A stretch of 64,000 bases of DNA, from the IMG/VR virus record IMGVR_UViG_2639762987_000002. One strand, written 5' to 3'. The stretch comes from a virus. Lineage: Duplodnaviria > Heunggongvirae > Uroviricota > Caudoviricetes. Shown one piece after another: positions 13,800 through 59,624 of this stretch (position 1 is the stretch's first letter; each line of letters opens with the position of its first letter). Position numbers and translations under genes: made by a program. The notes beneath the pieces were generated by a model. It searched no databases, was not told the origin of the DNA, and was given only the letters and a program-made list of their open reading frames with translations.

Positions 13800-14468
13800 A
13801 TGACCAAGATCTTTGTGGTTGGCGGCACAAAGGGCGGGCCTGGCAAATCCACCGTTGCCCAGCAAATTGCCGTTTGCCTGAAAGTCAAAAAGAAGAAGAA
13901 GGTTTATATCACTGATATAGATATTCAGCGCACGACAACAAGCTGGTGTGAAGACCGTCGACAGAACGAAGACCTTGAGCTGATTCCTTTTGCATACGTT
14001 CAGGATGACATCATTAAGCACCTAAAATCGCTTCAGGGTAGAGCTGAGTTTGTAGTGGTAGATGCTGGTGGCTTCGACTCCGAAATTCAGCGACAAGCGA
14101 TGCTGATGGCTGACGTTATCATTATCCCGCTGCGTCCTAAGCGTCGTGATTTGAAATCTTTACGTGACATCGATCCTATTATCGACAATGTTCGCAATGT
14201 AAACGATAAAGTGAAGGTCCGCGCGGTCATGAACCAGTGCCCGGCTTTGCCATCACAAGTGTCTCGCATTCTGGCGGCTAAAGAGATTGTTGAGACGTTT
14301 GGCATCGAGTCTGCGCCAGTCAATCTATATAACCGCAACGTCTATGATGATGCGGAAGAGTCTGGTCGTTCTATCTTTGAAATGACCGGTAGCGAGCGCG
14401 ACAAAAAGGCGGAAGCCGAGTTTGAAGAATTTGTAGATTATCTGTTGAGTCTGGAGGAAGAAGAATAA
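13800..14468 (+). CDS. parA: ParA-family partition ATPase
   Basis: Deviant Walker A GGTKGGPGKST at N-terminus; 222 aa; followed by a small RHH-like gene. Confidence 0.75.
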   Translation: MTKIFVVGGTKGGPGKSTVAQQIAVCLKVKKKKKVYITDIDIQRTTTSWCEDRRQNEDLELIPFAYVQDDIIKHLKSLQGRAEFVVVDAGGFDSEIQRQAMLMADVIIIPLRPKRRDLKSLRDIDPIIDNVRNVNDKVKVRAVMNQCPALPSQVSRILAAKEIVETFGIESAPVNLYNRNVYDDAEESGRSIFEMTGSERDKKAEAEFEEFVDYLLSLEEEE

Positions 14469-20707: not shown

Positions 20708-22026
20708 AAAAGTTGATCGCACTTAAGCATAAGCTGGACGAAATGAAAGCTATGGGAACCAATGCAAAAAAAGAGGCATTGGCCAACATGGATGACTTCG
20801 AGCAAAGCATGGTTTCATTGATGCTCAACCCTTTCATCCGTTTTGGGGTAAAGAAATACAAAGTGGCAGAGCCGCTTAGTGAGTCCATCCCAAGTGACGA
20901 AAAAGCCATTGATGTACTGAATAAGCTGGCCTCTCGCGAGCTAACGGGGAACGCAGCAATAGCAGCTGTTGAGTCTATCGTGGCGTCAATGTGCGCCGAT
21001 GGGCAGGACGTGTTCCGTCGTTTCCTCTTAAAAGACCCGAAAGCAGGTGTTGGGATTAGCCTATGCAACAAGGTTTTTGAAAATCCCATTCCGAAATTCG
21101 AGGTGCAGCTGGCGTCACCGTATAAAGAAAAAGGCGACAAATACCCCTTCAAGCCAAATCCTAAAGCAAAATGGCCGATGATTGGCAGTCTTAAGCTCGA
21201 TGGTTTGCGAGTAATTTGCGAGGTTATTGTTGACGAGGAAGAGGTTAACTTCCTTTCTCGTACTGGTAATCCAATCACGTCTCTCGATCACCTAAAGCCA
21301 GCAATGCTCGAATTAGGCAAACTTTCAGGCCACAAACACATCTTCTTCGATGGTGAAGGAACTGCCGGTTCATTTAACCAGTCCGTATCTGCATTGCGCA
21401 AAAAGAACGTGCAGGCAATTGGCGCTATTTATCATGTTTTCGACTTCTTCCTACCGGAATGGCGAGCACAGGCTAAATCCAAAGAGTATGCAAAGACAGG
21501 TATGAAGCTGAAAGAGCGCCTGGCTATGCTGGTGGCGTTGTTCAAAAACGATCGCAGTGAAGGCTACACACAAGACATTCACCTGCATCCGTTCTATATC
21601 ATCCATAGCCACGAAGACTTCATCGAACGCTTCATGAAACGCCTGGACGATAACGAAGAAGGGGAGATGGGCAAAGATCCGAACTCTGTTTACGAGTTTA
21701 AACGTACCCGCAGCTGGTGGAAGTTAAAAGACGAAGATTCAGAAGATGGTGAAATTATCGACTTTGAGCCGGGCGACCCGGACTCTGGTTTTGCCAACAC
21801 ACTTGGAAAAATTGTTATTCGTCTTGAAAACGGCGTCATCGTTCGTGCGAGCGGCATTAAGCATAAATATCTGGATGAGTTCTGGAACAACAAAGAGAAG
21901 TACCGTGGTCGTATTGTCGAGGTTCATTGTCACGAGAAAACACCGGACGGCAGCTTACGCCACCCACGACTGAAATGGCCGCGTTGCTTACGCGATACAG
22001 AAGATCGAATCGGAGATAAAGAATGA
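20704..22026 (+). CDS. ATP-dependent DNA ligase
   Basis: 440 aa; adenylation motif I SLKLDGLR (KxDG). Confidence 0.7.
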   Translation: MKKLIALKHKLDEMKAMGTNAKKEALANMDDFEQSMVSLMLNPFIRFGVKKYKVAEPLSESIPSDEKAIDVLNKLASRELTGNAAIAAVESIVASMCADGQDVFRRFLLKDPKAGVGISLCNKVFENPIPKFEVQLASPYKEKGDKYPFKPNPKAKWPMIGSLKLDGLRVICEVIVDEEEVNFLSRTGNPITSLDHLKPAMLELGKLSGHKHIFFDGEGTAGSFNQSVSALRKKNVQAIGAIYHVFDFFLPEWRAQAKSKEYAKTGMKLKERLAMLVALFKNDRSEGYTQDIHLHPFYIIHSHEDFIERFMKRLDDNEEGEMGKDPNSVYEFKRTRSWWKLKDEDSEDGEIIDFEPGDPDSGFANTLGKIVIRLENGVIVRASGIKHKYLDEFWNNKEKYRGRIVEVHCHEKTPDGSLRHPRLKWPRCLRDTEDRIGDKE

Positions 22027-22202
22027 TGCTCGGCTGGATGATTGCATTTTTAGCAGTTGGTTTTTTCATAGGTATTGTGGTGATGTCCAGTTGCATCAAT
22101 GACTACATTAAAAGCGGTGTTATAGAAAGACGCGGTCGTATTTATCGCATTGTAGAAATAACCAACACCCTGAAGGAGATTAAGGATGATCGTATTAAGT
22201 AA
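22023..22202 (+). CDS. Small membrane protein, paralog family member A
   Basis: 59 aa, below ORF-track cutoff; ATGA overlap with ligase stop; TM helix then RGRIYRIVEIT motif. Confidence 0.4.
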   Translation: MMLGWMIAFLAVGFFIGIVVMSSCINDYIKSGVIERRGRIYRIVEITNTLKEIKDDRIK

Positions 22203-22401
22203 ACGGGAGAAGGAAACGCTTCATGAAATCAGTAAGTGGCCGGAGTTCCCTGAGTACTGGAAGCCTAAAACGCGAGCTAAGTTAGAGCGTTTAGGGTTGG
22301 TTGCAAACGTTTCTGAAACGTGGTGTTCGGCCAACTACCAGTTAACTGATAAAGGGAAAGTATTGCTACAGCAATTAGTAGAATCAGGAGTGTTAAAATG
22401 A
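22186..22401 (+). CDS. Hypothetical small protein
   Basis: 71 aa; RBS AAGGAG. Confidence 0.45.
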   Translation: MIVLSKREKETLHEISKWPEFPEYWKPKTRAKLERLGLVANVSETWCSANYQLTDKGKVLLQQLVESGVLK

Positions 22402-22550
22402 TTCCATACATCTCATTAGCTTTTATGGGTGGCTTCCTTATCGGCTTCGGCATCTGTCGTGATTTAATTAAGCAGGAACTTAAAACCAAAACACTGTGCA
22501 TCGGAAAGCGTGTGTATCGGGTAGTTCATGAAACAAAGGTGAAAAAATGA
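22398..22550 (+). CDS. Small membrane protein, paralog family member B
   Basis: 50 aa, below ORF-track cutoff; ATGA overlaps at both ends; TM helix then GKRVYRVVHET motif paralogous to 22023-22202. Confidence 0.4.
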   Translation: MIPYISLAFMGGFLIGFGICRDLIKQELKTKTLCIGKRVYRVVHETKVKK

Positions 22551-23039: not shown

Positions 23040-23420
23040 GCAGGAGGGAACATTCATGTTCCCTCCGATGAAGTAACAGAATGGGCGGTTGGTATATTTT
23101 CAACTCCATATGACTCCCGGATTCTTAGCCACTGACCGCCCATCCTGTTACGTCATTTTGTTCAATTATGTCGTTTATACTGGGTTAAAAAGCGGCGACG
23201 TAGCCCGGCTGGTATGGTTAGCCAGCACACAACGTTGAGGCCATTACATTTTTATCAATTCTAAGGTTCTATTCACAGAGATACCGGCGAGCGTTGATAT
23301 GTAACATGTTGGGCAAACATTCAATCGGAGTAGTGGCCTCAACGTTGTGAAGACGGGATTGTTGTGTAGGTTTAACCACTGTTGCCATTGGTGCCTGTTT
23401 TCACAACAAATGATTCCATA
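23040..23420 (+). ncRNA. Candidate structured non-coding RNA region upstream of tRNA cluster
   Basis: No ORF over 60 codons; perfect hairpin 23043-23066; long-range complementarity 23076-23089 with 23135-23148 and 23228-23244 with 23343-23359. Confidence 0.3.
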
Positions 23421-23615
23421 CATCACATTGTATAAATTACAAAGTAGGTGCTGTCCTCAGAAACATCATCTACTTAAAGATTTTGCCTTCTACTATTGAG
23501 CGAAGTCGAAAGCGTCTGGCACTAACGAAAAGTGCAAGTAGCGGTGCGTTTCCTGGCAGAAACTAAACCGTCGCGATTGGCACTGTTGAGTAATAAATAC
23601 TGGCAGTGCTGAATT

Positions 23616-23690
23616 GATGGTGTAGCTCAGCGGTAGAGCAGTTGGCTGTTAACCAACTGGTCGGTGGTTCGAATCCACCCACCATCGCCA
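23616..23690 (+). tRNA. tRNA-Asn (anticodon GTT)
   Basis: Manual fold: acceptor GATGGTG/CACCATC, anticodon loop CTGTTAA, T-loop TTCGAAT, 3' CCA. Confidence 0.75.
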
Positions 23691-23695
23691 ATTTA

Positions 23696-23782
23696 GGGGA
23701 GTTAGTCCGTAGAGGTAGCGGTGTAGACTGTAAATCTACTGTCATGGCGACTCGGGTGGTTCGACTCCATCACTCCCCACCA
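23696..23782 (+). tRNA. tRNA-Tyr (anticodon GTA), long variable arm
   Basis: 87 nt; acceptor GGGGAGT/ACTCCCC, anticodon loop CTGTAAA, T-loop TTCGACT, 3' CCA. Confidence 0.65.
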
Positions 23783-23786
23783 AATT

Positions 23787-23862
23787 GCCGGTTTAGCTCA
23801 GTTGGTAGAGCGCCTGCCTTGTAAGCAGGATGTCAGCGGTTCGAGTCCGTTAACCGGCACCA
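23787..23862 (+). tRNA. tRNA-Thr (anticodon TGT)
   Basis: 76 nt; acceptor GCCGGTT/AACCGGC, D-loop AGTTGGTAGA, anticodon loop CTTGTAA, T-loop TTCGAGT, 3' CCA. Confidence 0.8.
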
Positions 23863-24079
23863 ACACAACAGGAAAGAGCATTGAAAACCGCCGAGACTGC
23901 CCTGTTTTAAGCGTAAGTCCGTGCAAACGTCATACAGTGCTCTTTTCGTTGTGGTTGATGCGCAGACTGATGCGCGGAAAGAAATGCCCCAGCGACACAC
24001 GAGGCGAGTTCACACACTGCAATGCAGTCAGTAGCCGGGGTCGCTAAGCCGGAGATCAGTACCGGTAACCACAACAATT

Positions 24080-24166
24080 GGAGAGTAGGGAGCATGGTGC
24101 TCAAGCGGTCTTGAAAACCGTCCCATTGTGCAAACGATGATGGTTCGATTCCATTACTCTCCGCCA
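24080..24166 (+). tRNA. tRNA-Ser (anticodon TGA), long variable arm
   Basis: 87 nt; acceptor GGAGAGT/ACTCTCC, anticodon loop CTTGAAA, T-loop TTCGATT, 3' CCA. Confidence 0.65.
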
Positions 24167-24358: not shown

Positions 24359-25621
24359 TTACTTTGCATAGTCGCCCAATTTTAATATTTCGCGCTTATA
24401 TTCATTAACCATGCTACTGGATTCAGTATAAATTCGATTTAAAAGATTATCGTTATCTTTATTTTCATTTATCTTAATTAGTGCTAATTTATATTCATAG
24501 TCATCAAATGCCACAATTAAATGGTGGCCTGGGATTATATCTTCGTCACTCTTAAAGTATATATCTTCAAGTATGTAATCTAGTTGATTAGATTTTCTTT
24601 TCTCGATGTAATCTTCAGCCATAGCTATTACATCATTCCTGTCATTTAACCTGTTTTTTTCGGAAGGCACATCTTCGTAATGTTGCACGATTGAACAACC
24701 AATAAGGCGTGGGATGTAAACGTCAAAATGAGTAACTCTATCATTCGCGGTTTTAAGTAGTTCCTCAAAGTAGTTTCTTACATGTAAAGGCAACTTCTCA
24801 AAGTAATCATTAATTATAGGAGAACAAGGAGTTTTATAATTCATAAGAACCGACGGTACGAGCTTTGGGTGTCGAAACATCCAGTCCCTTTTAACGTCCG
24901 ATGGAACATAATAACTTTTAATGATATTATCAAAATAATTTATCATTCGAGATTTGAATATTTTGTTGAATCTAAGGTTTATGAATGTATCCAGATAAGG
25001 CATATTTGAATAAGCATCATCAAAAAATATTTCTTCATTGAAGAAATCATATTTATTTAATAAATAAAACAGTTTTTCCGAATTAATATGTTCACAATAA
25101 TCGATTTTTAATCCAAAGATAGCAATGATCAACTTCATCTGAGGTGGGATTTTAAAAATTAATTGTGACACATACGCTCTTTTTTCCTTGAGACATTCCC
25201 CATCAATATAAAATGAACCATCCACATACTCAAATATATTAATAATATGCTTCACATACTGTATTACCTCATGCTGTCTTACCAATGGATAATATAGTCT
25301 ATGTAACTCATCGCTGTTTAAATTAATTTTGTGTTTATCGATAATTTGTTTTGCAAGAAGACATAACTCATCATGTTGATTTAATAAGGAATCAAACCAT
25401 TGTTTAAATGCACTCTTTCGCATTTCGAACAATGATTCAGTTGTTAATTGAAGGGCTGAAAAAGCCGCTTTTGCACTTTTTCTCGCTTCGTAGGCATTCC
25501 ATGCTGTTGCTATAAAAGCAAATGCTGTAGCCAATGTTCCAACAGTTTGACCATTTAAAACAACCCAATCCCAAAAAATGACGGTGAGCAGTAGTATAAT
25601 AATGAAAATTAAAAAAGGCAT
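24359..25621 (-). CDS. AT-rich membrane-anchored protein of unknown function (candidate exclusion/defence gene)
   Basis: 420 aa on minus strand; two N-terminal TM helices; strongly AT-rich by eye relative to flanks; own terminator. Confidence 0.6.
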   Translation of the reverse strand: MPFLIFIIILLLTVIFWDWVVLNGQTVGTLATAFAFIATAWNAYEARKSAKAAFSALQLTTESLFEMRKSAFKQWFDSLLNQHDELCLLAKQIIDKHKINLNSDELHRLYYPLVRQHEVIQYVKHIINIFEYVDGSFYIDGECLKEKRAYVSQLIFKIPPQMKLIIAIFGLKIDYCEHINSEKLFYLLNKYDFFNEEIFFDDAYSNMPYLDTFINLRFNKIFKSRMINYFDNIIKSYYVPSDVKRDWMFRHPKLVPSVLMNYKTPCSPIINDYFEKLPLHVRNYFEELLKTANDRVTHFDVYIPRLIGCSIVQHYEDVPSEKNRLNDRNDVIAMAEDYIEKRKSNQLDYILEDIYFKSDEDIIPGHHLIVAFDDYEYKLALIKINENKDNDNLLNRIYTESSSMVNEYKREILKLGDYAK

Positions 25622-25795: not shown

Positions 25796-26041
25796 ATGAC
25801 GATCACTATCTACGGACGAGATAACTGCTCATACTGCAAACGTGCGGTCGAGCTGGCGAAGCAACTAAAGGGACATGGCTACGGTGATTATGAGTACATC
25901 GACATCACCACTGCCGGTATCGACAAGGAAAAACTAAGTGAAATTGTTGGTAAACCGGTAGAGACTATCCCCCAAGTGCTGATCGATGGCCAACCGATTG
26001 GCGGATACACAGAACTGGCTGCATACGTCAGCACCCTCTGA
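25796..26041 (+). CDS. Glutaredoxin/NrdC-like thiol-disulfide protein
   Basis: 81 aa from ATG 25796 with RBS GAGGT (ORF track begins 25718); active-site CSYC; C-terminal GG motif. Confidence 0.65.
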   Translation: MTITIYGRDNCSYCKRAVELAKQLKGHGYGDYEYIDITTAGIDKEKLSEIVGKPVETIPQVLIDGQPIGGYTELAAYVSTL

Positions 26042-26046
26042 TTTTA

Positions 26047-26068
26047 ACGGCTCACAGGAGCCGTTTTT
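26047..26068 (+). terminator. Rho-independent terminator
   Basis: ACGGCTC-ACAG-GAGCCGT hairpin followed by TTTTT. Confidence 0.75.
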
Positions 26069-26251
26069 ATTCCCACCAAACTCACTCCCGTTTCCCTTAA
26101 AATTCAAAAAACAACGTCAAAATGATTCCATACCTACTATGTATGGAATCATTGCTGAAAATGAGTTACTTTTACTCTTGATCCTATAAGAATCTATGCC
26201 TAATATACTGTTTACTTATACAGTGCATCGGCGTAACTCGGTGATTGTCAT

Positions 26252-27355
26252 ATGAAAAATAGCTTTGACAGAGCACGCGCTGCGGAGAACACCTCAAAAG
26301 AGGCGATAGAGTATCTCGAAAGAGCATCTCAAATGCAGGCCGTTATGATCTCGCAGGTTAGCAATGACATGAGATTCTCGGACGCATTCATGTTATTCAC
26401 TCGCTTATCTCTGCTGATAACCAGACGTCGGCCAGAGATCGCTGTTCATTGTATTTTGATACATGTTTTGCCGCACATTGCCGATGTAAAAGTAAGTGAC
26501 ATTAATAGGTTCATGGTGAACCAACTGGTCAACCCACTAATACTGGATGGCAAAATTGTTATGGGCCGCCGCGTTTTCTCTCTGATGAAGCAGTTCCTTA
26601 GCTGGTGCGCCTTCCAGGGGATGATAGACGTGTCACCGTTAAACGATATGTCACTAAACAAAGTTGCCGGTGGCGCAAAGCCCACACCTCGCGAGCGGAA
26701 GCTGACCGACGCAGAGGTATGGGTGTTCTGGAATATATGGGACTACTTCAATGTGTGCGCTGGTACAAAATGGGCGGCCAGGCTGTGTCTTGTATCCGCA
26801 AGACGACCTGACGAAGTACTGCGGGCTAAAAAAAGTGAGTTCAATCTTAAGCGTGGGGTTTGGAATCAAGGCAAGAGGAACAAATCTGCCCGTGAGCATT
26901 CGCTGCCTTTAAGCACATTAATGCGCACATGTATTGAAGAGTTGTTCGAATACGGTAAAGGCAGCCAGTGGCTCGTGCCTTCGAATAAAAAAATCGGGAA
27001 AGACCTTCCTATGTCTAAAGTGGCAATAGCCCAGGCATTACGTCGTATCCTGGAACGACCAGAACTGATGGAGCTTGAGCCATTTACACCCCGAGACTTG
27101 CGCCGTACTGCGCGTAGTTACTTCCCAGCATTAGGCATAAGCCAGGAGGTATCACGTAAAATCATGAACCACAGTCTTGAGGGGATAGATCGAGTCTACG
27201 ACCGGCACGATTATATGGACGAGATGCGAGACGCCTTAGAAAGTTTCTCGACGTACATCGCATCAATCGTAGAGCAACCGGATTTAGACGAAATTGACCA
27301 CAAATTTAAGGGAGATCGTCTATCAACAGAGCTTATTCGTGTAAATTTTTCATAG
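26252..27355 (+). CDS. Tyrosine site-specific recombinase (integrase or resolution recombinase)
   Basis: 367 aa; C-terminal region with ARRPDEVLR, LRRTARSY, NHSLEG...YDRHDY resembling tyrosine recombinase boxes. Confidence 0.6.
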   Translation: MKNSFDRARAAENTSKEAIEYLERASQMQAVMISQVSNDMRFSDAFMLFTRLSLLITRRRPEIAVHCILIHVLPHIADVKVSDINRFMVNQLVNPLILDGKIVMGRRVFSLMKQFLSWCAFQGMIDVSPLNDMSLNKVAGGAKPTPRERKLTDAEVWVFWNIWDYFNVCAGTKWAARLCLVSARRPDEVLRAKKSEFNLKRGVWNQGKRNKSAREHSLPLSTLMRTCIEELFEYGKGSQWLVPSNKKIGKDLPMSKVAIAQALRRILERPELMELEPFTPRDLRRTARSYFPALGISQEVSRKIMNHSLEGIDRVYDRHDYMDEMRDALESFSTYIASIVEQPDLDEIDHKFKGDRLSTELIRVNFS

Positions 27356-27736
27356 AGACTTTATGGCCTCAACAACCTTTTGTGATGCGCCTTTCTCTTT
27401 ACCGAATCGCTCGTTATATGCAGCAAGAACCTGTTTTTCGTCCTCGTTAAGAGGAGCAGTGCCTTCTTTGTATAAAAATGCTGCGAGTTCGGGTTGGCGT
27501 TCTTCCAGCACCATCATCATAAGACGACTTGGCTCAATACCCAGTGCCAGCGCCAGCGGACGAACCTTATCGATAGGCAAAGGAATTTTGCCGCTTTTAA
27601 TTAAAGAAAGGTTGTTGGCGTTTTTATACCCAATTGTTTTGGCTATCTGGGCCTGGCTCATAGGTGAGGATTCAATCAACCCTGCGATAAAAGCAGCGTA
27701 GCGACTTTCTATAAATTCAATCTTGTTATCAGACAT
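27350..27736 (-). CDS. XRE-family helix-turn-helix transcriptional regulator
   Basis: 128 aa on minus strand; HTH segment SQAQIAKTIGYKNANNLSLIKSG; divergent from downstream operon. Confidence 0.6.
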   Translation of the reverse strand: MSDNKIEFIESRYAAFIAGLIESSPMSQAQIAKTIGYKNANNLSLIKSGKIPLPIDKVRPLALALGIEPSRLMMMVLEERQPELAAFLYKEGTAPLNEDEKQVLAAYNERFGKEKGASQKVVEAIKSL

Positions 27737-27767
27737 GGTTACAACCTTTGCGCGTTCAATTCTCTCT

Positions 27768-27781
27768 GGTAAGTGCTTACC
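27768..27781. promoter_or_regulatory. Operator-like palindrome GGTAAGTGCTTACC in divergent promoter region of the XRE regulator
   Basis: Perfect palindrome; same core as the site at 51759-51779. Confidence 0.45.
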
Positions 27782-27987
27782 GATATTACATCAAAGGTTA
27801 GGGTTGTAAAGCTATTATCATTTTTTTCGATAGGCACTTAAAAGACCGGTTAAAGGCCATTGCACGGAGAAAAATTAGCCCAAAATAGGTAAGAAAATTA
27901 ACTTGCATATGATATGAATGTATTCAGTATTGATACAAATTTTAGTAGTATTCCTTACCATAGTATAAGTTAGAATGGATTGATTGA

Positions 27988-31944: not shown

Positions 31945-34900
31945 CTTCTCACTTGGGGAGTCGGCTCTAAAAGCAGAAAACGCGGTGAAGATTGCCAGAG
32001 AAGCTGGCTACACCGCTGTAATTTCAGCAGATAGCATGAATATTGCGAGCGTTATTCCACTACAACGTGCCGCTGGTGACGACATGGCGGTTATTTGTGG
32101 TGTGAAACTAAACATTGTTGATGATCCCACATACGAGCACCGGGCTAAACTTGCTAAAGAATCTATGAGATGTATGGAATCATTAGAGCGGGGACGTAAC
32201 TACTCGTTTACCGCTCTAATTAAAAATGAGCAAGGATATCGCGACATCTGCGAACTAATGACGGTGGCCAACACACGAGAACAGTTCTACTTTGTACCGC
32301 GTCTCTCGCTCGAACAGTTGGTTTCTACATATGCCAAAGGCAACATCATCCTGCTCACTTCCGACATCGGTAGCGTGTTCCAACGCAACGATTTTGCAAA
32401 AATCATAAGCTCACTGATTACAGCGGGCGGGAAAGACAACTTCTATAGTGTGGTTTATCCGCACCCTACCCCATTCTACGACCAGATTAACGTCCGAGCG
32501 ATGAAAGTCGCCAGCGCACTGAAAATAGAGCCAGTAGCGTTCTATCCCGCTTATTACGAATCGATCGACGATGCAGACATTAAAGACATTGCGCACATGG
32601 TTACGAACAACATAAAAATCGACCAGCCGCATCGTCTGCGTATCCCCCACCAGCGAGATAACGCCATCAATGGTCGTCGCCATCTCCTTGAGGCGCTTAA
32701 AGCCTTCTCCGTTCGCATGGATGTGCCGGTAACAGCTGCAATGGCCTCAACAACGCAGGACTCCATTATCGATGCCTGCACATGGCGCTGGCATGAATTG
32801 CCACCAGCACTGCCCAAGATGGCAGACGACGAACCTGCAACGCTGATGAAACTGGCTGTTGCAGGGCTGCGTAAACGTCTTACCACAAAAGAGTTTGGAT
32901 ACACACCACCTGCTTCTGAGAACAGGGTTTATGTTGAGCGGCTAAAGTACGAAATGGACACGCTGACTCGCCTGGGATTCTGTGGTTACTTCCTGATGGT
33001 ACGCGATCTGATGAATCACAGCCGTGAAACTGGCATTCCTGTCGGGCCTGGTCGTGGTTCCTCTGCCGGTTCTCTGGTGGCGTGGTGCATAGGCATAACC
33101 AACGTCGACCCAATCCGTCACGGTCTTCTGTTTGAGCGTTTCATCAACCCTGAGCGTCTCGACTTGCCGGATGCGGACTTGGACTTCAGCCAGGCACGTC
33201 GCCATGAGGTGATCGAGTATCTGAATGAACGCTACGGCGAAGATTACGTTGCAGGCATTCCGAACTTCACCTACCTGGGCGCAGCCTCTGCACTACGTGA
33301 CACCGCTCGTATTTATGGTGTGGAGTCCGCAGATATGGCGGTATCAAAAGAACTGAAGAACGTCGAGGATGATAGCCTTCCATTGGAAGAGCTGCGCGAA
33401 CAACTGGCAAGTCTCGACAAATACGCAACAAAATATCCTGATGCATTCAATGCAGCCTGCAAGTTACAAAGCCTTATGCGTGGCTTTGGTAGACATGCGG
33501 CAGGGATGATCGTAGCAGGTGTTCCTCTGACAGAACGTACACCGGTTGAACGCCGTGGTGACGCGCGTTGTATCGCATTTGACAAGCGTTACTGCGAGGC
33601 TATGGGCCTAATTAAGCTGGACGTACTTGGTCTGGCAACTCTCGATTTGCTCGATAGTGCAAAACGCTACATAAAAGAGAACACAGGTGAAGATATCAAT
33701 CTTGATGCCATTTCTCTTGAAGATCGCAAGGTGCTGGATGGTTTTGCTGCTGGGTACACTCAAGGTGTTTTCCAGCTTGAATCAGGCCCAATGCGCAAGC
33801 TGCTTAAAGATTTAGGTGGTGGAATTGAGCCAATGAGCTTTAAAACGGTTGTTGCTACGACTGCGCTCTTCCGGCCGGGGCCAATTCAGTCAGGCATGTT
33901 GGATGACTATGTTTCTGTAGCCAAAGGCTTTATGACGCCGGAATCATTACACCCCGTTCTTGATGAACTTACCGCAGAAACAAATGGCGTGATTCTCTAT
34001 CAGGAACAGACGATGAACGCGACTCGATTGCTTGCTGGCTTCACAATGGCTGAAGCTGACGGCGTTCGTAAAGCGATCGGCAAAAAAGACATGGAAAAAA
34101 TGAAGAGCATGGGCGAGAAGTTCATCGTTCAGGCTCAAGCTGGCTGGATAGACGTTGAGCTGGAAGATGGCACTACACAGCGCATTCACCGTGCGGAACA
34201 TTTTAAATGCGAAGACGGAACTCTGAAAACTGTCGAAGAGGCACTTGAGTACGGCGCAAAACTACCTATAAACGCAGTACGCGTTACAGCGTCACATCCA
34301 GGGCTATCAGAGATGAAAGCGAAGGAGATCTGGACCGCATTCGAAAAGAATGGTGCCTACCAGTTCAACAAATCACACTCTGTTGCTTACTCCTTAATCA
34401 GTTATCAATCTATGTGGTTGAAAACTCATTATCCCGCGGAGTTCTTCGCTGCTGCTCTCACTATTCTTGGCGAAGATAAACACCAGGGGCTGGTTAAAGA
34501 TGCGCTGACCTATGGTATTCGCGTATTGCCACCAGACGTTAACGTGTCATCTAACCGAATCGAGATCCGCACGCTTGAAGATGGCAGCCAGGTGCTGTAT
34601 GCGCCCTTCTCTGCTGTGAAAGGGTGTTCTGAGAATGGCTGCCAAGCCATCATGAGAGCGCGAGAAAAAGTTGGCGGCAAATTCGAGTCACTGGCGCAAT
34701 TCGAAGAAGCTGTCGAGAAACGTGCCTGTAATAGTCGAGTGCGCGAATCACTGCAAAAAGTAGGTGCGTTTGCATCCATCGAGCCAGGTAGTCTGCCAGC
34801 AACTGATCCAGAGCGTCTCCGCGACCAGGCTGAATTGATGGGAAACCTTGTCATAGACGCAGTTAAAGCCTCACGTCCGTTTGAGATGAACCCCAAACGT

Positions 34901-44360: not shown

Positions 44361-44893
44361 ACCGCTGACAGCATACACAATCAACTACCGCTGATAGCAT
44401 ATCGAGAGTCTATCTCACCGCTCACAGCATACTTTACTCGATTTTTTACCGCTGACAGCATACTTAAGAAATTGCATGAATAATGTGTCCCGGTATGGGT
44501 ATAACCAGAACAAAATTACCGCTGGCAGCATACGAATGTCTGACATATACCATTAATTACCGCTGATAGCATATCCAAACAAAAATTCCTCAATAAAACA
44601 CCGCTGACAGCATACGTTCTATCAGGGAGTAGCAGGCAATAAATGCCTTTCACTACAAGCAATCAGCGCAATAGCAATAGAATGTTAGTGAGCGCAAACC
44701 TATATGGAATGCACTCTTCGAGGTTAGTAACCACTGGGGAGGTATGACAGAGCATTGAGTGGTGATAGATGATTTACCGCTCACAGCATACGTTCATCTC
44801 ACTATACCGCTGGTAGCATATCTTTAACCGTTCACAGCATACTTTTCAGAAAAATAGCCGCTGATAGCATACATTTCACCGCTGACAGCATAT
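44361..44893 (+). repeat. Iteron array downstream of rep gene (12 direct repeats, consensus ACCGCTGACAGCATAC)
   Basis: Copies begin at 44361, 44387, 44417, 44448, 44518, 44559, 44600, 44776, 44806, 44827, 44857, 44878; all same orientation, irregular spacing 21-70 bp. Confidence 0.85.
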
Positions 44894-45987
44894 CAAAGCA
44901 GTTTGAGACTATTGGAAAGGATCTCAATCATCTTGATATTTTCAGGCGTCAAATTCTGCGAAAGTTCGGTTATCTTGTTGATAATGTTCTGTTTGGCATC
45001 AATTTCCCCAGCTTTCTCATCTGGTTTTTTGGGTTCGATGTCTTCAGGTTTTGGCGGTGCGACTTTGAGTTTTGGATTGCGGCTGTGAATCTGGATATAG
45101 ATCGACCGCCCACGCTTAATCTCGCTGTATTCGAGATAGCCCAAATCTTGGAGAGCTTTTAAGCCGTTACGTATAGTCTGATTCTGCGAGCTGACATTCC
45201 TGCTACTCAAATTGAGTCGCGCACGCAATCGAGCAAGCGATACCGGCGCAGGCTTGGTTGGAAGACTTTCGATGAAGGTGTACAGAGCCTGTGCTGTTTC
45301 TTTGCGTGGTAGCTTATTGATAACCTTTAACTGCAAAAGAACCTTATGGTCAAAGCGATATAGCTCGGCCAGCTTCGGTTCTGCATAGAACACCACCGTA
45401 TCTTTCTGCTCGTTGTAGTCCACGCTATTGATGAGGTGCACCATCAGAAGCGAGATCTTGTTAGAGCCGTCGACGTTCTTTTCTTCATACGTTCTCTGGA
45501 AAGACAGAGTTGTACGCATGATCTTCAAAAGACTGTTTGTAAGCCGGTCGCGGAGTGTTTTGCGGATCTGTGACGATGGATAGCCACAAAACTTAGCAAA
45601 TTTCGTGATGCTTAACTCGACACGACCGTTAGGTTCGCCGTATTCTGCCAGCGAACGCACAACGCCCACCCACGTTTTGAAATCATGATCCATGTCGAGA
45701 CGAGGACCGGTTATCTTGATATCGGAATAGCCTTCAGAACGGGCTACTTCGAGCTGGACAAGCTCCTTTGAAGCATCGATCTCATTTGGCTTGTTACGTT
45801 TACTGTATTTTGTTCCCTTAAGCGTGGGGACGAACAACCCCAGTCGCATCAACGCAATTGGTTGGACTGTATTGTTGCTATTAGGGACAAGTTCCCCTGT
45901 GTACAATTCAAGGGAACCTTCTTCAAAGTTGTCGATGTTATCTTCTACTTCTTTGTTATTTTTACCTTTTTTATTTTTTGTGGACAT
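44893..45987 (-). CDS. repA: Iteron-binding plasmid-type replication initiator (RepA-like)
   Basis: Minus strand, 364 aa from ATG at 45987 with RBS AAAGG (ORF track extends to 46107 across iterons); flanked on both sides by iterons. Confidence 0.6.
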   Translation of the reverse strand: MSTKNKKGKNNKEVEDNIDNFEEGSLELYTGELVPNSNNTVQPIALMRLGLFVPTLKGTKYSKRNKPNEIDASKELVQLEVARSEGYSDIKITGPRLDMDHDFKTWVGVVRSLAEYGEPNGRVELSITKFAKFCGYPSSQIRKTLRDRLTNSLLKIMRTTLSFQRTYEEKNVDGSNKISLLMVHLINSVDYNEQKDTVVFYAEPKLAELYRFDHKVLLQLKVINKLPRKETAQALYTFIESLPTKPAPVSLARLRARLNLSSRNVSSQNQTIRNGLKALQDLGYLEYSEIKRGRSIYIQIHSRNPKLKVAPPKPEDIEPKKPDEKAGEIDAKQNIINKITELSQNLTPENIKMIEILSNSLKLL

Positions 45988-46007
45988 GTGGACACCTTTG
46001 TCATTCA

Positions 46008-46109
46008 ACCGCTGACAGCATACTTGATTTGCCGCTGACAGAATACCAAAAACAGTTGGCAGCATACGGTGAACCGCTGACAGACTATCAATTACCGCTG
46101 ACAGCATAC
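46008..46109 (+). repeat. Origin-proximal iterons upstream of rep gene (5 copies, about 21-bp periodicity)
   Basis: Copies at 46008, 46031, 46052 (degenerate), 46073, 46094. Confidence 0.8.
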
Positions 46110-56507: not shown

Positions 56508-57611
56508 GTGTCACTCCTTTTGAATCGTGAGCATACGAACGGTCAGGTAACAAACGCATCGTATGCAAAAGTTATTGAGACGGTGCTTAAAAGCGGCGTG
56601 CAGGCTGATGATCGCACAGGCACTGGTACTTTAAGCACCTGCTACGTTCCCTCTTACTACATGCTTACTGGTGGGACTGTGCCGCTTATTTCTGGAAAGG
56701 CGGTAAATCTTAAGCCACTGCTTGTCGAACTTGAGTGGTATCTGAAAGGCACGGGCAACATCCAATTTCTCAAGGATAACGGCGTTAAGATTTGGGATGC
56801 ATGGGCCGATGAGAATGGCGATTTGGGGCCGGTTTACGGTAAGCAGTGGCGTCGATGGGAAGATACCCGCATCGTGAGCCATAGTGAATATCTGAGCAAG
56901 ATCGCTACTTTCCGTGAACGCGGGTACAAAGTCGAGGGATACCTGGGTATCAGTGAAGATCGCGTAGTGCTGTCCCGTGAAATCGATCAGCTACAGCGTA
57001 TTGTCGATACACTGCGCACGAACCCTACCGATCGTCGCATCATGCTTAACGCATGGAACGTAGGCGAGCTTGAGGATATGAAACTGCCACCTTGCCACTT
57101 TGTCTTCTCTTTGTGGAGTCGTGAACTGGATTTTGAAACCCGTTTAACGATGGCAACTGACATTGGTCTACAACACAGTCGCCTCGGTTATGAGTCTATC
57201 TACACCAAGATGCTATACGATCTGGAGATGGACGGCAGTGTTACTGAAACTGAACTGGATGAACTTGGAATCCCCAAACGCATCCTCAACTCCTGCCTCG
57301 TACAGCGTAGCGTAGACACTTTTGTTGGTATGCCATTCAATATTGCTGGCTATGGCATTCTCACTCATTTTCTCGCGAAGATTACGGGTCACATGGCCGG
57401 TGCATTTGTGCATTTTGGCTTTGACGTGCATTTGTACAACAACCACATGGAAGGTGTGTGTGAGCTAATGCAACGACAGGCTCCAGAGCATTCAGATCCG
57501 GTCGTTATATTCCCTAATGAATGGTCTGAGCTGGATGATTTCAAATGGGACGAGATTCTTATTCTTGGCTATGCCCCTCTACCGTGGATCAAGGTTCCAG
57601 TGGCGGTGTGA
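56508..57611 (+). CDS. thyA: Thymidylate synthase (ThyA)
   Basis: DRTGTGTLS near N-terminus and catalytic MLNAWNVGELEDMKLPPCHFVFSLW; start uncertain (GTG 56508 after GAGG; ORF track begins GTG 56481). Confidence 0.85.
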   Translation: MSLLLNREHTNGQVTNASYAKVIETVLKSGVQADDRTGTGTLSTCYVPSYYMLTGGTVPLISGKAVNLKPLLVELEWYLKGTGNIQFLKDNGVKIWDAWADENGDLGPVYGKQWRRWEDTRIVSHSEYLSKIATFRERGYKVEGYLGISEDRVVLSREIDQLQRIVDTLRTNPTDRRIMLNAWNVGELEDMKLPPCHFVFSLWSRELDFETRLTMATDIGLQHSRLGYESIYTKMLYDLEMDGSVTETELDELGIPKRILNSCLVQRSVDTFVGMPFNIAGYGILTHFLAKITGHMAGAFVHFGFDVHLYNNHMEGVCELMQRQAPEHSDPVVIFPNEWSELDDFKWDEILILGYAPLPWIKVPVAV

Positions 57612-59204: not shown

Positions 59205-59624
59205 ATGTTTAGTGAAATGTTGCTTGAAGATGAACTGGATCGGAAAACAACAGAGGCTTTGATTCGTGTAGCGGACGAACATTCCCGGTCGCTTATGAGC
59301 GATCGAGAGGCTCGTCTGGCTATTCGTGCCATATTCGAAACTGCGCAGGGGCTTGTTGGTACACAAGTGGGTGAAGCCATTAACATCGCCATGTCTCAGT
59401 TCAGTGAAGGCAGTAAAAAGTCTCTGTTTCCTATGCATTTGATGCTGGCTGGTGGCACGGTGCTTTATATCTCTGTTTGTCTGGATAGCAACCAAATCAA
59501 TATTCTCAACACTGTGTCAGGTAAGTGGAAAGATCCGATTGTCTGTGAAACCAGTGAAGAAACTTTGAAAAAAGCGGCTCAATTTGTACGTAGCGCACTA
59601 CTTAAGGGCGCTAAGAAGTTGTAA
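59205..59624 (+). CDS. Hypothetical protein
   Basis: 139 aa; helical. Confidence 0.5.
   Translation: MFSEMLLEDELDRKTTEALIRVADEHSRSLMSDREARLAIRAIFETAQGLVGTQVGEAINIAMSQFSEGSKKSLFPMHLMLAGGTVLYISVCLDSNQINILNTVSGKWKDPIVCETSEETLKKAAQFVRSALLKGAKKL

Follow-up and report, generated by a model that had tools for sequence, protein, structure and literature searches.

Does a recombinase gene that lies close to tRNA genes on a phage genome mark an integrated prophage, or does it serve an element that stays outside the chromosome? This question is raised by a locus in IMGVR_UViG_2639762987_000002, a 64,000-nucleotide stretch of caudoviricete DNA from IMG/VR (hereafter the window, meaning the whole of this stretch). 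A preliminary description of positions 25796-27987 had proposed that a tyrosine recombinase gene (here int, product Int) and a divergent XRE regulator flank a promoter region with operator-like palindromes, and that they form either an integration/immunity module or a module for dimer resolution and maintenance of lysogeny. We favour, with a probability of roughly 0.6, a Cre/loxP-like, SOS-inducible multimer-resolution module that stands beside a separate gene whose product is likely to be a lysogeny or early-gene repressor. Most likely, what looks like the integrase of a plasmid-borne prophage performs no integration, and it probably keeps the plasmid monomeric.

The Recombinase and the Element That Carries It

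The window matches the Escherichia coli plasmid pAVS0968-B (NZ_CP124394.1; 99.6% identity) and the phage-plasmid Cyrano (pLF82; 98%), and the element is an E. coli phage-plasmid of the SSU5/pHCM2/pMT1 type, a supergroup that has been described before (PMC7969092). The plasmid replicon named in the preliminary description is present, with a Rep3-type initiator and a ParA ATPase (Table 1), and so are phage replication genes. DNA related to the window was found in 757 PLSDB plasmids (Klebsiella, Escherichia, Enterobacter, Yersinia, Salmonella, and others), and the recombinase gene is carried by 933 PLSDB records. In 5,426 complete E. coli genomes, int and the adjacent helix-turn-helix (HTH) gene occur in 254 copies (252 genomes), all of them on plasmids and none in a chromosome; the recombinase family is on plasmids in every record that was checked for replicon type.

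The recombinase itself proved to be as described. It matches PF00589 and, weakly, PF22022, and its family comprises ~113 clusters (44-100% identical, 340-380 aa), all of which combine PF22022 with PF00589; the arm-binding domain PF13356 was absent from the query and from all ~113 clusters in the Pfam scan. The next relatives (at most 34% identity) are P4/CP4-57-type integrases, and all of these (P0114-P0120) have PF13356. Integrases of this type insert islands and phages at tRNA or tmRNA genes. They share with the recombinase the central and catalytic domains and a C-terminal H-x8-Y-D-R-x-D-Y motif, but here ~55 helical residues replace the arm-type domain, and the element was not found chromosomally integrated beside a tRNA or tmRNA gene in any of the 254 copies. 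From its domain content, the recombinase can be classed as an arm-domain-less relative of the P4-type integrases. R185, R284 and Y316 are invariant in the family alignment, and K211 and H307 are at least 90% conserved. A missing catalytic tyrosine, which the preliminary description had considered as a sign of an inactive enzyme, was not found: Tyr316 is present together with R-K-R-H, and the His-II residue alone is replaced. An AlphaFold2 (AF2) model (pLDDT, the predicted local distance difference test, 86.1; pTM, the predicted template modelling score, 0.78) has two domains after the ~55 helical residues. Foldseek gave 30 matches at E<=1e-3, the best of them to lambda Int 75-356, Tn1549 Int, XerA/H and IntI4, and more weakly a match to Cre (~1e-2); phmmer against the PDB gave no sequence match at E<=1. 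The catalytic residues and the modelled two-domain fold (core-binding and catalytic) place the protein in the tyrosine recombinase superfamily.

A Candidate Lox-like Core Site Linked to the Recombinase Gene

About 100 bp upstream of the int ATG lies a candidate recombination core site, with 13-bp perfect inverted arms (AATGATTCCATAC and GTATGGAATCATT) around a 7-bp asymmetric spacer. The arms are kept before int in every relative that was aligned, and the spacers differ (CTACTAT, CTATTAA, TTGGTAG, CTATAGA, and others). When the spacer was left free, a pattern search for the two arms gave 121 occurrences, 7 of them loci in 185,579 species genomes and 114 of them IMG/VR contigs, and in 115 of the 121 the start of an int homolog is 46-102 bp from the site. 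Five of the other six lie within ~420 bp of the end of the locus and the sixth (L080) ~1 kb from it, so that among the 121 occurrences none is demonstrably without int; each of the seven full sites in the species genomes adjoins int. The spacer takes at least 15 forms, and relative to int both of its polarities occur.

Megaplasmids of Pantoea, Rahnella and Erwinia (150-550 kb) extend the comparison, as they encode an Int that is 45-48% identical to the query among flanking genes that are all different. Their site, TGACTCCAGAC-N7-GTCTGGAGTCA, lies 83-138 bp upstream of int, and its arms differ from those of the phage-plasmids at two positions, changed symmetrically in both arms. Two arm classes can be distinguished, TGATTCCATAC with an Int at least 56% identical to the query and TGACTCCAGAC with an Int 45-48% identical, and the bases that flank the arms also change symmetrically between the classes (from AA/TT to TG/CA). 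A site that is linked to nothing but int, whose arms change in concert and whose asymmetric spacer varies freely, is what one would expect of a simple site that is cognate to the recombinase, and the covariation argues that the specificity of the site co-evolves with the recombinase. Because the megaplasmids keep int and the site without the HTH gene, int and the HTH gene are two functionally separable units.

An A-tract box (TTCAAAAAA, 26093-26101) lies ~20 bp to the left of the core; it is kept in most phage-plasmid lineages, is replaced in pGD31-F25, and may be a bend or an accessory element. We also considered a position of the core at the replication terminus, by analogy with KOPS and dif. 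This was not supported: the cumulative GC skew rises monotonically across the window, and RepA, ~19 kb away, would put a theta terminus far from int.

A Predicted LexA Box in the Recombinase Promoter

Both hexamers of a putative int promoter are kept in the phage-plasmid relatives; this promoter was read from the sequence and scores 8/12, under the threshold of a consensus scan. A LexA (SOS) box, TACTGTTTACTTATACAGTG, abuts its -10 hexamer. The box contains the sole CTGT-N8-ACAG of the window (26208-26223). As 0.85 matches are expected by chance, the window alone proves nothing, and the support comes from conservation: of the 88 distinct upstream regions of int, 75 have the box between -33 and -47, with CTGT and ACAG invariant and many variants of the interior. 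It is not present in the megaplasmids, nor in one phage-plasmid lineage in which the core is closer to the gene. The recombinase promoter is probably under the control of this predicted LexA box. In published RNA-seq data, RNA of the Cyrano int (99.7% identical) was at log2 5.6 in LB (lysogeny broth) and 6.1 in medium alone, and at 8.9 after 1 h and 10.3 after 6 h in macrophages, a rise of ~25-fold; this is consistent with SOS control but not specific for it, since a macrophage is not a clean SOS condition.

LexA-controlled site-specific recombination is known from integron integrases and from the SOS-inducible ftsK promoter (XerCD/dif). There, as would be the case here, the recombinase or its activator stands behind a LexA box and the capacity for recombination rises with DNA damage. 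Unlike in integrons, there are no attC cassettes here and the site is symmetric; unlike in the Xer system, the recombinase is plasmid-encoded and has its own site.

A second strong LexA box (TACTGTATGGATAAACAGTA) was found outside the window, on NZ_CP124394.1 (71402-72549), 36 bp upstream of a gene for a 129-aa S24-family peptidase, which is divergent from a gene for a 'DNA-binding protein'. With this locus, the element has a second candidate for SOS sensing or immunity.

Solitary Arm Copies Around the Core

The 13-mer arm occurs exactly five times in the window, twice in the core and at 22397 (+), 23409 (+) and 32172 (-); outside this 10-kb region, no exact copy was found in the other ~100 kb of the sister plasmid pAVS0968-B. 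Copies A and B and the copy in the dnaE coding sequence extend to the 16-mer AATGATTCCATACATC, and a degenerate copy within int (TGATTCCAAAC) is exact in the Klebsiella, pMT1, pHCM2 and hvKP859 lineages. Relatives from Klebsiella, Yersinia and Salmonella have their solitary arms at the orthologous positions. Codons on either side of the dnaE copy differ at their wobble positions, and the 16-mer itself is at least 90% invariant; the extended consensus is read in different frames within dnaE and int, yet it is invariant. Copies to the left of the core are all on the plus strand and those to the right all on the minus strand, i.e., they point toward the core; with four orthologous positions only, this inward polarity has a probability of ~1/16 by chance and is suggestive. 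Solitary arms are absent from the megaplasmid contexts, and no rearrangement between them was seen among the relatives examined. For Int, they might serve as accessory sites, in regulation or as roadblocks.

Accessory or asymmetric sites are known from TnpI/IRS of Tn4430 (DR1, DR2), from Rci/sfx of the R64 shufflon and from KOPS, which point toward dif, and these systems likewise have extra oriented copies of a recognition element. However, the known accessory repeats lie less than ~100 bp from the core, the sfx sites recombine and KOPS are read by a translocase, whereas the solitary arms are 0.7-6 kb away, some of them in essential-looking genes.

Two other explanations of the solitary arms were rejected. 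An origin as insertion scars or degenerate full sites was discarded, as the ATC that follows the solitary arms never matches the spacer of any core and a second arm could not be recognised; the starts of small open reading frames (ORFs; MIPY...) were discarded as a general explanation, as only copy A heads a conserved ORF and the frames after copy B and after the core are not conserved. The ORF that begins inside copy A encodes a predicted membrane protein of 50 aa (22398-22550), paralogous to another small one of 59 aa (22023-22202); both lie among short ORFs after the DNA ligase gene.

The Putative HTH Gene and a Set of Palindromes

The preliminary description had placed the recombinase and the regulator in divergent orientation. 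Instead, the two genes are convergent: they lie tail to tail with a 6-bp overlap (27350-27355), in which each stop codon is the complement of the last sense codon of the other gene. A tail-to-tail overlap of 6-11 bp is also kept in Klebsiella pJN2-26, Yersinia pestis pMT1, Salmonella Typhi pHCM2 and hvKP859 (a Klebsiella lineage of 59% identity). As the genes are convergent, the promoter/operator region does not lie between them. Such a region with a conserved palindrome does exist (27737-27987), only that it sits between the HTH gene and a 70-aa ORF (orf70) and not beside the recombinase gene. A hairpin inside the HTH gene (27576-27592) was considered as an int terminator and discarded, because its stem is not conserved in the relatives.

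The 128-aa ORF that was called an XRE regulator is there, and its assignment to the HTH proteins is tentative. Its HTH_19 match of 19.7 bits is under the cut-off of 30.2, it matches PHROG_8 ('transcriptional regulator') at 1.3e-11, its family profile finds an XRE-type HTH in the PDB (2kpj) at E=0.07 only, and the protein alone gave no usable match to PDB sequences. A Pfam search for an S24 peptidase domain gave no peptidase match.

A promoter-like site for the HTH gene forms a conserved block in the alignment, and just downstream of its -10 hexamer lies a 14-bp palindrome (GGTAAGTGCTTACC), a candidate operator that is kept in four lineages. A related 22-bp palindrome, GATAGGTAAGTRCTTACCTATC, has 19 copies in the window (at most 6 mismatches) compared to 2.6 in shuffles, and its best copies are intergenic and upstream of plus-strand genes (25732, before grx, and 51759, 61311 and 63524); these dispersed copies resemble either a set of operators across the genome or an element associated with promoters. 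Their co-location with the gene suggests that the HTH protein may bind these palindromes. In that case, it would occupy the 14-bp palindrome of its own promoter and, probably, those related to it before early genes, and would thereby repress the divergent orf70, cobT, AAA ATPase and dnaE genes. A role as lysogeny or early-gene repressor is plausible: the ortholog CYRAN_45 was called a 'putative repressor', is treated by the authors as a putative master repressor, and was expressed 10-fold above background in the lysogen (PMC9928086).

The arrangement resembles CI/Cro modules in that a small, putative HTH protein is encoded divergently from an early operon, has a candidate palindromic operator that overlaps its own promoter, and is expressed in the lysogen. 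The HTH protein differs from lambda-type CI in having no S24 domain, hence no RecA-stimulated self-cleavage, and its partner orf70 has no recognisable HTH. The P1 C1 repressor has dispersed operators, and the related palindromes scattered genome-wide are in this respect like those of C1 and unlike CI/Cro.

What the Recombinase Probably Does

Several observations bear on function. The int upstream region has no match in E. coli chromosomes at E<=1, no excisionase (xis)-like gene is adjacent to int, and ARAGORN gives four complete tRNA genes and no fragments, so that the tRNAs are whole phage-borne genes rather than the partial 3' ends of an attP. On pAVS0968-B no other site-specific recombinase is annotated, and the copy number of Cyrano is 5.5 per cell (PMC9928086). 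Together with the plasmid-only distribution of the copies, the missing chromosomal match and xis gene, the complete tRNAs, the sole recombinase and the ~5.5 copies make multimer resolution the best-supported function. The arm-domain-less recombinase would bind the 33-bp core upstream of its own gene as a dimer and, like Cre at loxP, would carry out strand exchange over the 7-bp spacer. The principal task of the recombinase would be to turn plasmid multimers (possibly also terminally redundant infecting DNA) into monomers, which would let a ParA-partitioned replicon of ~5 copies segregate faithfully. Host LexA would repress the int promoter, and DNA damage, which would raise RecA-dependent multimerisation and induce the phage, would lead to more recombinase. 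Of the two functions offered by the preliminary description, dimer resolution combined with maintenance of lysogeny comes closer and agrees with the lox-like site; its weakness is that it joins two separable genes in a single module with the wrong, divergent geometry.

The closest functional parallel is Cre/loxP of phage P1 (with the relatives Dre/rox and Vika/vox). As here, a tyrosine recombinase without an arm-binding domain is encoded on a low-copy plasmid prophage, next to a site with two 13-bp perfect inverted arms and a short asymmetric spacer. Cre resolves P1 multimers at loxP (a role cited in PMC7969092), and we presume the same here. There are also differences: no sequence relationship to Cre is detectable and Foldseek links the two only at E ~1e-2, the spacer has 7 bp compared with 8 bp in loxP, and the module described here has a LexA box in its promoter and solitary arms over 10 kb. 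By analogy, the module would work like Cre/lox, but it is not a member of the Cre family.

An integration module near tRNAs with the HTH protein as immunity repressor, the other function that had been offered, would have Int insert the phage genome into a chromosomal attB (e.g., a tRNA gene). The closest outside relatives of Int are indeed P4/CP4-57-type integrases, which target tRNA genes, and its genes carry the annotation 'site-specific integrase'. Against this stand the absence of any chromosomal copy in the 5,426 E. coli genomes, the lack of a chromosomal match for the int upstream region, a full site that lies only beside int in the 185,579 species genomes, the lack of an arm-binding domain and of an adjacent xis-like gene, arms that are perfect and symmetric rather than imperfect core-type sites, and tRNAs that are intact phage genes. 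Integration is extremely improbable on this evidence, and an attP/attB pair was rejected on the missing chromosomal match and the restriction of the full site to int. Alternatively, the main role of Int might lie in the infective or lytic cycle and not in segregation of the plasmid: SOS-induced Int would cyclise injected, terminally redundant virion DNA, as Cre does, or would process replication intermediates, with the solitary arms marking the sites of its action during lytic replication. LexA control and strong induction under stress would fit this role, as would the induction of the phage family by ciprofloxacin and mitomycin C (PMC9928086, PMC9600943) and solitary arms that occur only in phage-plasmids, not in megaplasmids, and among replication genes. 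However, the megaplasmids are not phages and keep int and the site, and therefore the ancestral role should be a plasmid function. In addition, repression by LexA would leave little expression of int in a cell that has only just been infected and is undamaged, and SSU5 (NC_018843), the type phage, a free phage of Salmonella in which cobT directly follows tRNA-Asn (L132, 6393-6558) and which lacks the entire segment from the cargo and core through int and the HTH gene to orf70, propagates without int. We regard a lytic role as unlikely, though not negligibly so.

The solitary arms invite the further idea that Int also acts as a DNA-binding regulator or architectural protein, which, bound to the four polar 16-mers and the core, would build a higher-order complex; this complex would control early or replication genes by roadblock or looping, or would confer on the core its selectivity in resolution. 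The confinement of five exact 13-mers to 10 kb with none in the other ~100 kb, the AATGATTCCATACATC extension, which is conserved in two genes although they read it in different frames, the orthology of the positions among E. coli, Yersinia and Klebsiella, and the common orientation toward the core speak for it; yet only four orthologous positions carry that orientation, the copy within int has degenerated in the E. coli clade, SSU5 still has its solitary copies without int (perhaps merely after a recent deletion), and accessory sites kilobases away are without precedent in resolution systems. This role is quite unlikely. We give equally little credence to a broader version, in which the core and four inward 16-mers form a multi-site system peculiar to phage-plasmids, and SOS-induced Int couples damage to lytic replication or to the lysis-lysogeny decision. 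Int on polar sites in and around replication genes (dnaE, int, the tRNA/small-ORF region) would then be a switch or architectural factor, to which antisense collision of the convergent int and repressor transcripts could add; if true, this would be a role of a tyrosine recombinase beyond strand exchange. Finally, Int might capture cargo as integrons do, by inserting circular cassettes at the core and so creating the hypervariable region to its left. In several comparisons, the outer edge of the left arm is the exact point at which homology between relatives ends, and the cargo differs in every lineage: pMT1 has the caf1 F1-capsule operon 0.6 kb from the core, pHCM2 and Klebsiella have phoH/gp49/grx, Cyrano has an orphan that is 723-fold over-expressed, and pGD31-F25 has the YafO toxin. 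Nevertheless, many lineages keep the TTCAAAAAA box ~20 bp left of the core, so that the break often lies outside the site; cassette-borne second sites were not seen; and the solitary arms, followed by a conserved ATC that matches no core spacer and in two cases located within conserved genes, are not insertion scars. The cargo boundary could arise from site-mediated exchange or from a conserved site that merely abuts a variable region, which would give the same pattern without insertion by Int, and cassette capture is very unlikely.

Some observations also weigh against multimer resolution coupled to a separate repressor. LexA repression is unusual for a housekeeping resolvase, and four solitary arms, two of them in conserved genes, are superfluous for a Cre-like one. 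The His-II position is Arg (R281) throughout the recombinase family; Arg at this position is tolerated in other tyrosine recombinases. The induction in macrophages is not specific to int, as many plasmid genes rise, including toxin-antitoxin genes and orf70 (ortholog CYRAN_46, log2 4.3 to 10.8), and the counts for the HTH gene in these Cyrano data may include antisense read-through from int. The HTH assignment is itself weak (a sub-threshold Pfam match and weak PDB-profile matches), and given the S24 locus of NZ_CP124394.1 the lysogeny switch may lie outside the window, with the HTH protein only a local regulator. In the searchable literature, we found no recombination, LexA-binding or DNA-binding experiment on this recombinase family.

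Annotations of the genes existed before, and modules that pair the recombinase of a plasmid prophage with a small repressor are known. The lox-like site and its variants, the arm-less P4-like clade (plasmid-borne in all the records with a checked replicon type), the LexA box and the dispersed polar arms appear to be undescribed; an account of the site, of the LexA box or of a role of the recombinase in maintaining these elements was not found in the searchable literature. The phage-plasmid group is common and medically relevant, as it includes pMT1 of Y. pestis and pHCM2 of S. Typhi and is reported to have members that carry resistance genes (PMC9600943). If the resolution reading is true, the module would serve the whole group as its multimer-resolution system and would provide a case in which a plasmid recombinase is tied to the SOS response; the recombinase/site pair, for which nature offers two arm specificities and at least 15 spacers, would be a candidate orthogonal tool of the Cre/lox type. 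For annotation, an integrase next to tRNA genes does not equal an integrated prophage here.

Locus Layout and Minor Observations

The gene order was derived from the ORF map, a Pfam scan and the RefSeq annotation of pAVS0968-B (Table 1). The tRNA genes are as near to the recombinase gene as had been described. The first 246 bp of the span assigned to the module by the preliminary description are the glutaredoxin gene and lie outside the module. On the other side, orf70 heads the run of cobT, AAA ATPase and dnaE, a synteny that is kept in the relatives.

Table 1. Coordinates of the genes and of the known, putative and candidate sites in the window.
Feature	Position	Strand	Evidence and remarks
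ParA ATPase	13800-14468	+	plasmid partition gene
Solitary arm A AATGATTCCATACATC	22397-22412	+	overlaps start codon of 50-aa ORF
Solitary arm B AATGATTCCATACATC	23409-23424	+	~190 bp upstream of tRNA-Asn
tRNA-Asn/Tyr/Thr/Ser	23616-24166	+	ARAGORN; 2.1-2.6 kb upstream of int
420-aa orphan	24359-25621	-	no Pfam hit; PHROG_18168, function unknown; 36% GC patch between tRNA cluster and grx, in the slot whose cargo differs in each relative
grxA-type glutaredoxin	25796-26041	+	Pfam scan and sister-plasmid annotation; last gene of variable cargo region
Candidate recombination core site	26121-26153		AATGATTCCATAC + CTACTAT + GTATGGAATCATT, 33 bp
Putative int promoter	26178-26206	+	TTGATC (26178-83), 17-bp spacer, TAATAT (26201-06)
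Predicted LexA (SOS) box TACTGTTTACTTATACAGTG	26206-26225		abuts -10 hexamer, 27-46 bp before int ATG
Tyrosine recombinase (int), 367 aa	26252-27355	+	Pfam Phage_integrase (PF00589) 6.8e-10
Degenerate solitary arm in int TGATTCCAAAC	26858-26868	-	one mismatch
Putative HTH regulator, 128 aa	27350-27736	-	weak HTH_19; PHROG_8
14-bp palindrome GGTAAGTGCTTACC	27768-27781		candidate operator just downstream of HTH -10 hexamer
Promoter-like site for HTH gene	27783-27810	-	TTTACA, 16-bp spacer, TAATAT; conserved block in alignment
orf70, 70 aa	27988-28200	+	PHROG_2627 at 9e-40, function unknown
Solitary arm in dnaE coding sequence AATGATTCCATACATC	32169-32184	-	16-mer
Rep3-type initiator	44893-46107	-	plasmid replicon gene
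22-mers like GATAGGTAAGTRCTTACCTATC	5983, 10764, 15897, 19331, 20202, 22847, 25732, 36007		in the window
22-mers like GATAGGTAAGTRCTTACCTATC, continued	39527, 43568, 47075, 51759, 56472, 61311, 62351, 63524		in the window

Near-identical elements differ in their tRNA genes, with Asn, Tyr, Thr and Ser in the window and Asn, Thr and Ser in Cyrano (L002, 3616-3863); the Klebsiella relative and SSU5 have tRNA-Asn only. Furthermore, a 44.5-kb segment (virion structural genes and more) is inverted in the window relative to pAVS0968-B. There is no annotated invertase, and the inverted repeats GGTGGCCA-N9-(A/G)ACCACTTCAA, which the junctions in pAVS0968-B bear, are unrelated to the int arms. The junction lies at 59205-59225 in the window and near 57045 and 101589 in NZ_CP124394.1, and the breakpoint coincides with the start of a 139-aa ORF (59205-59624).

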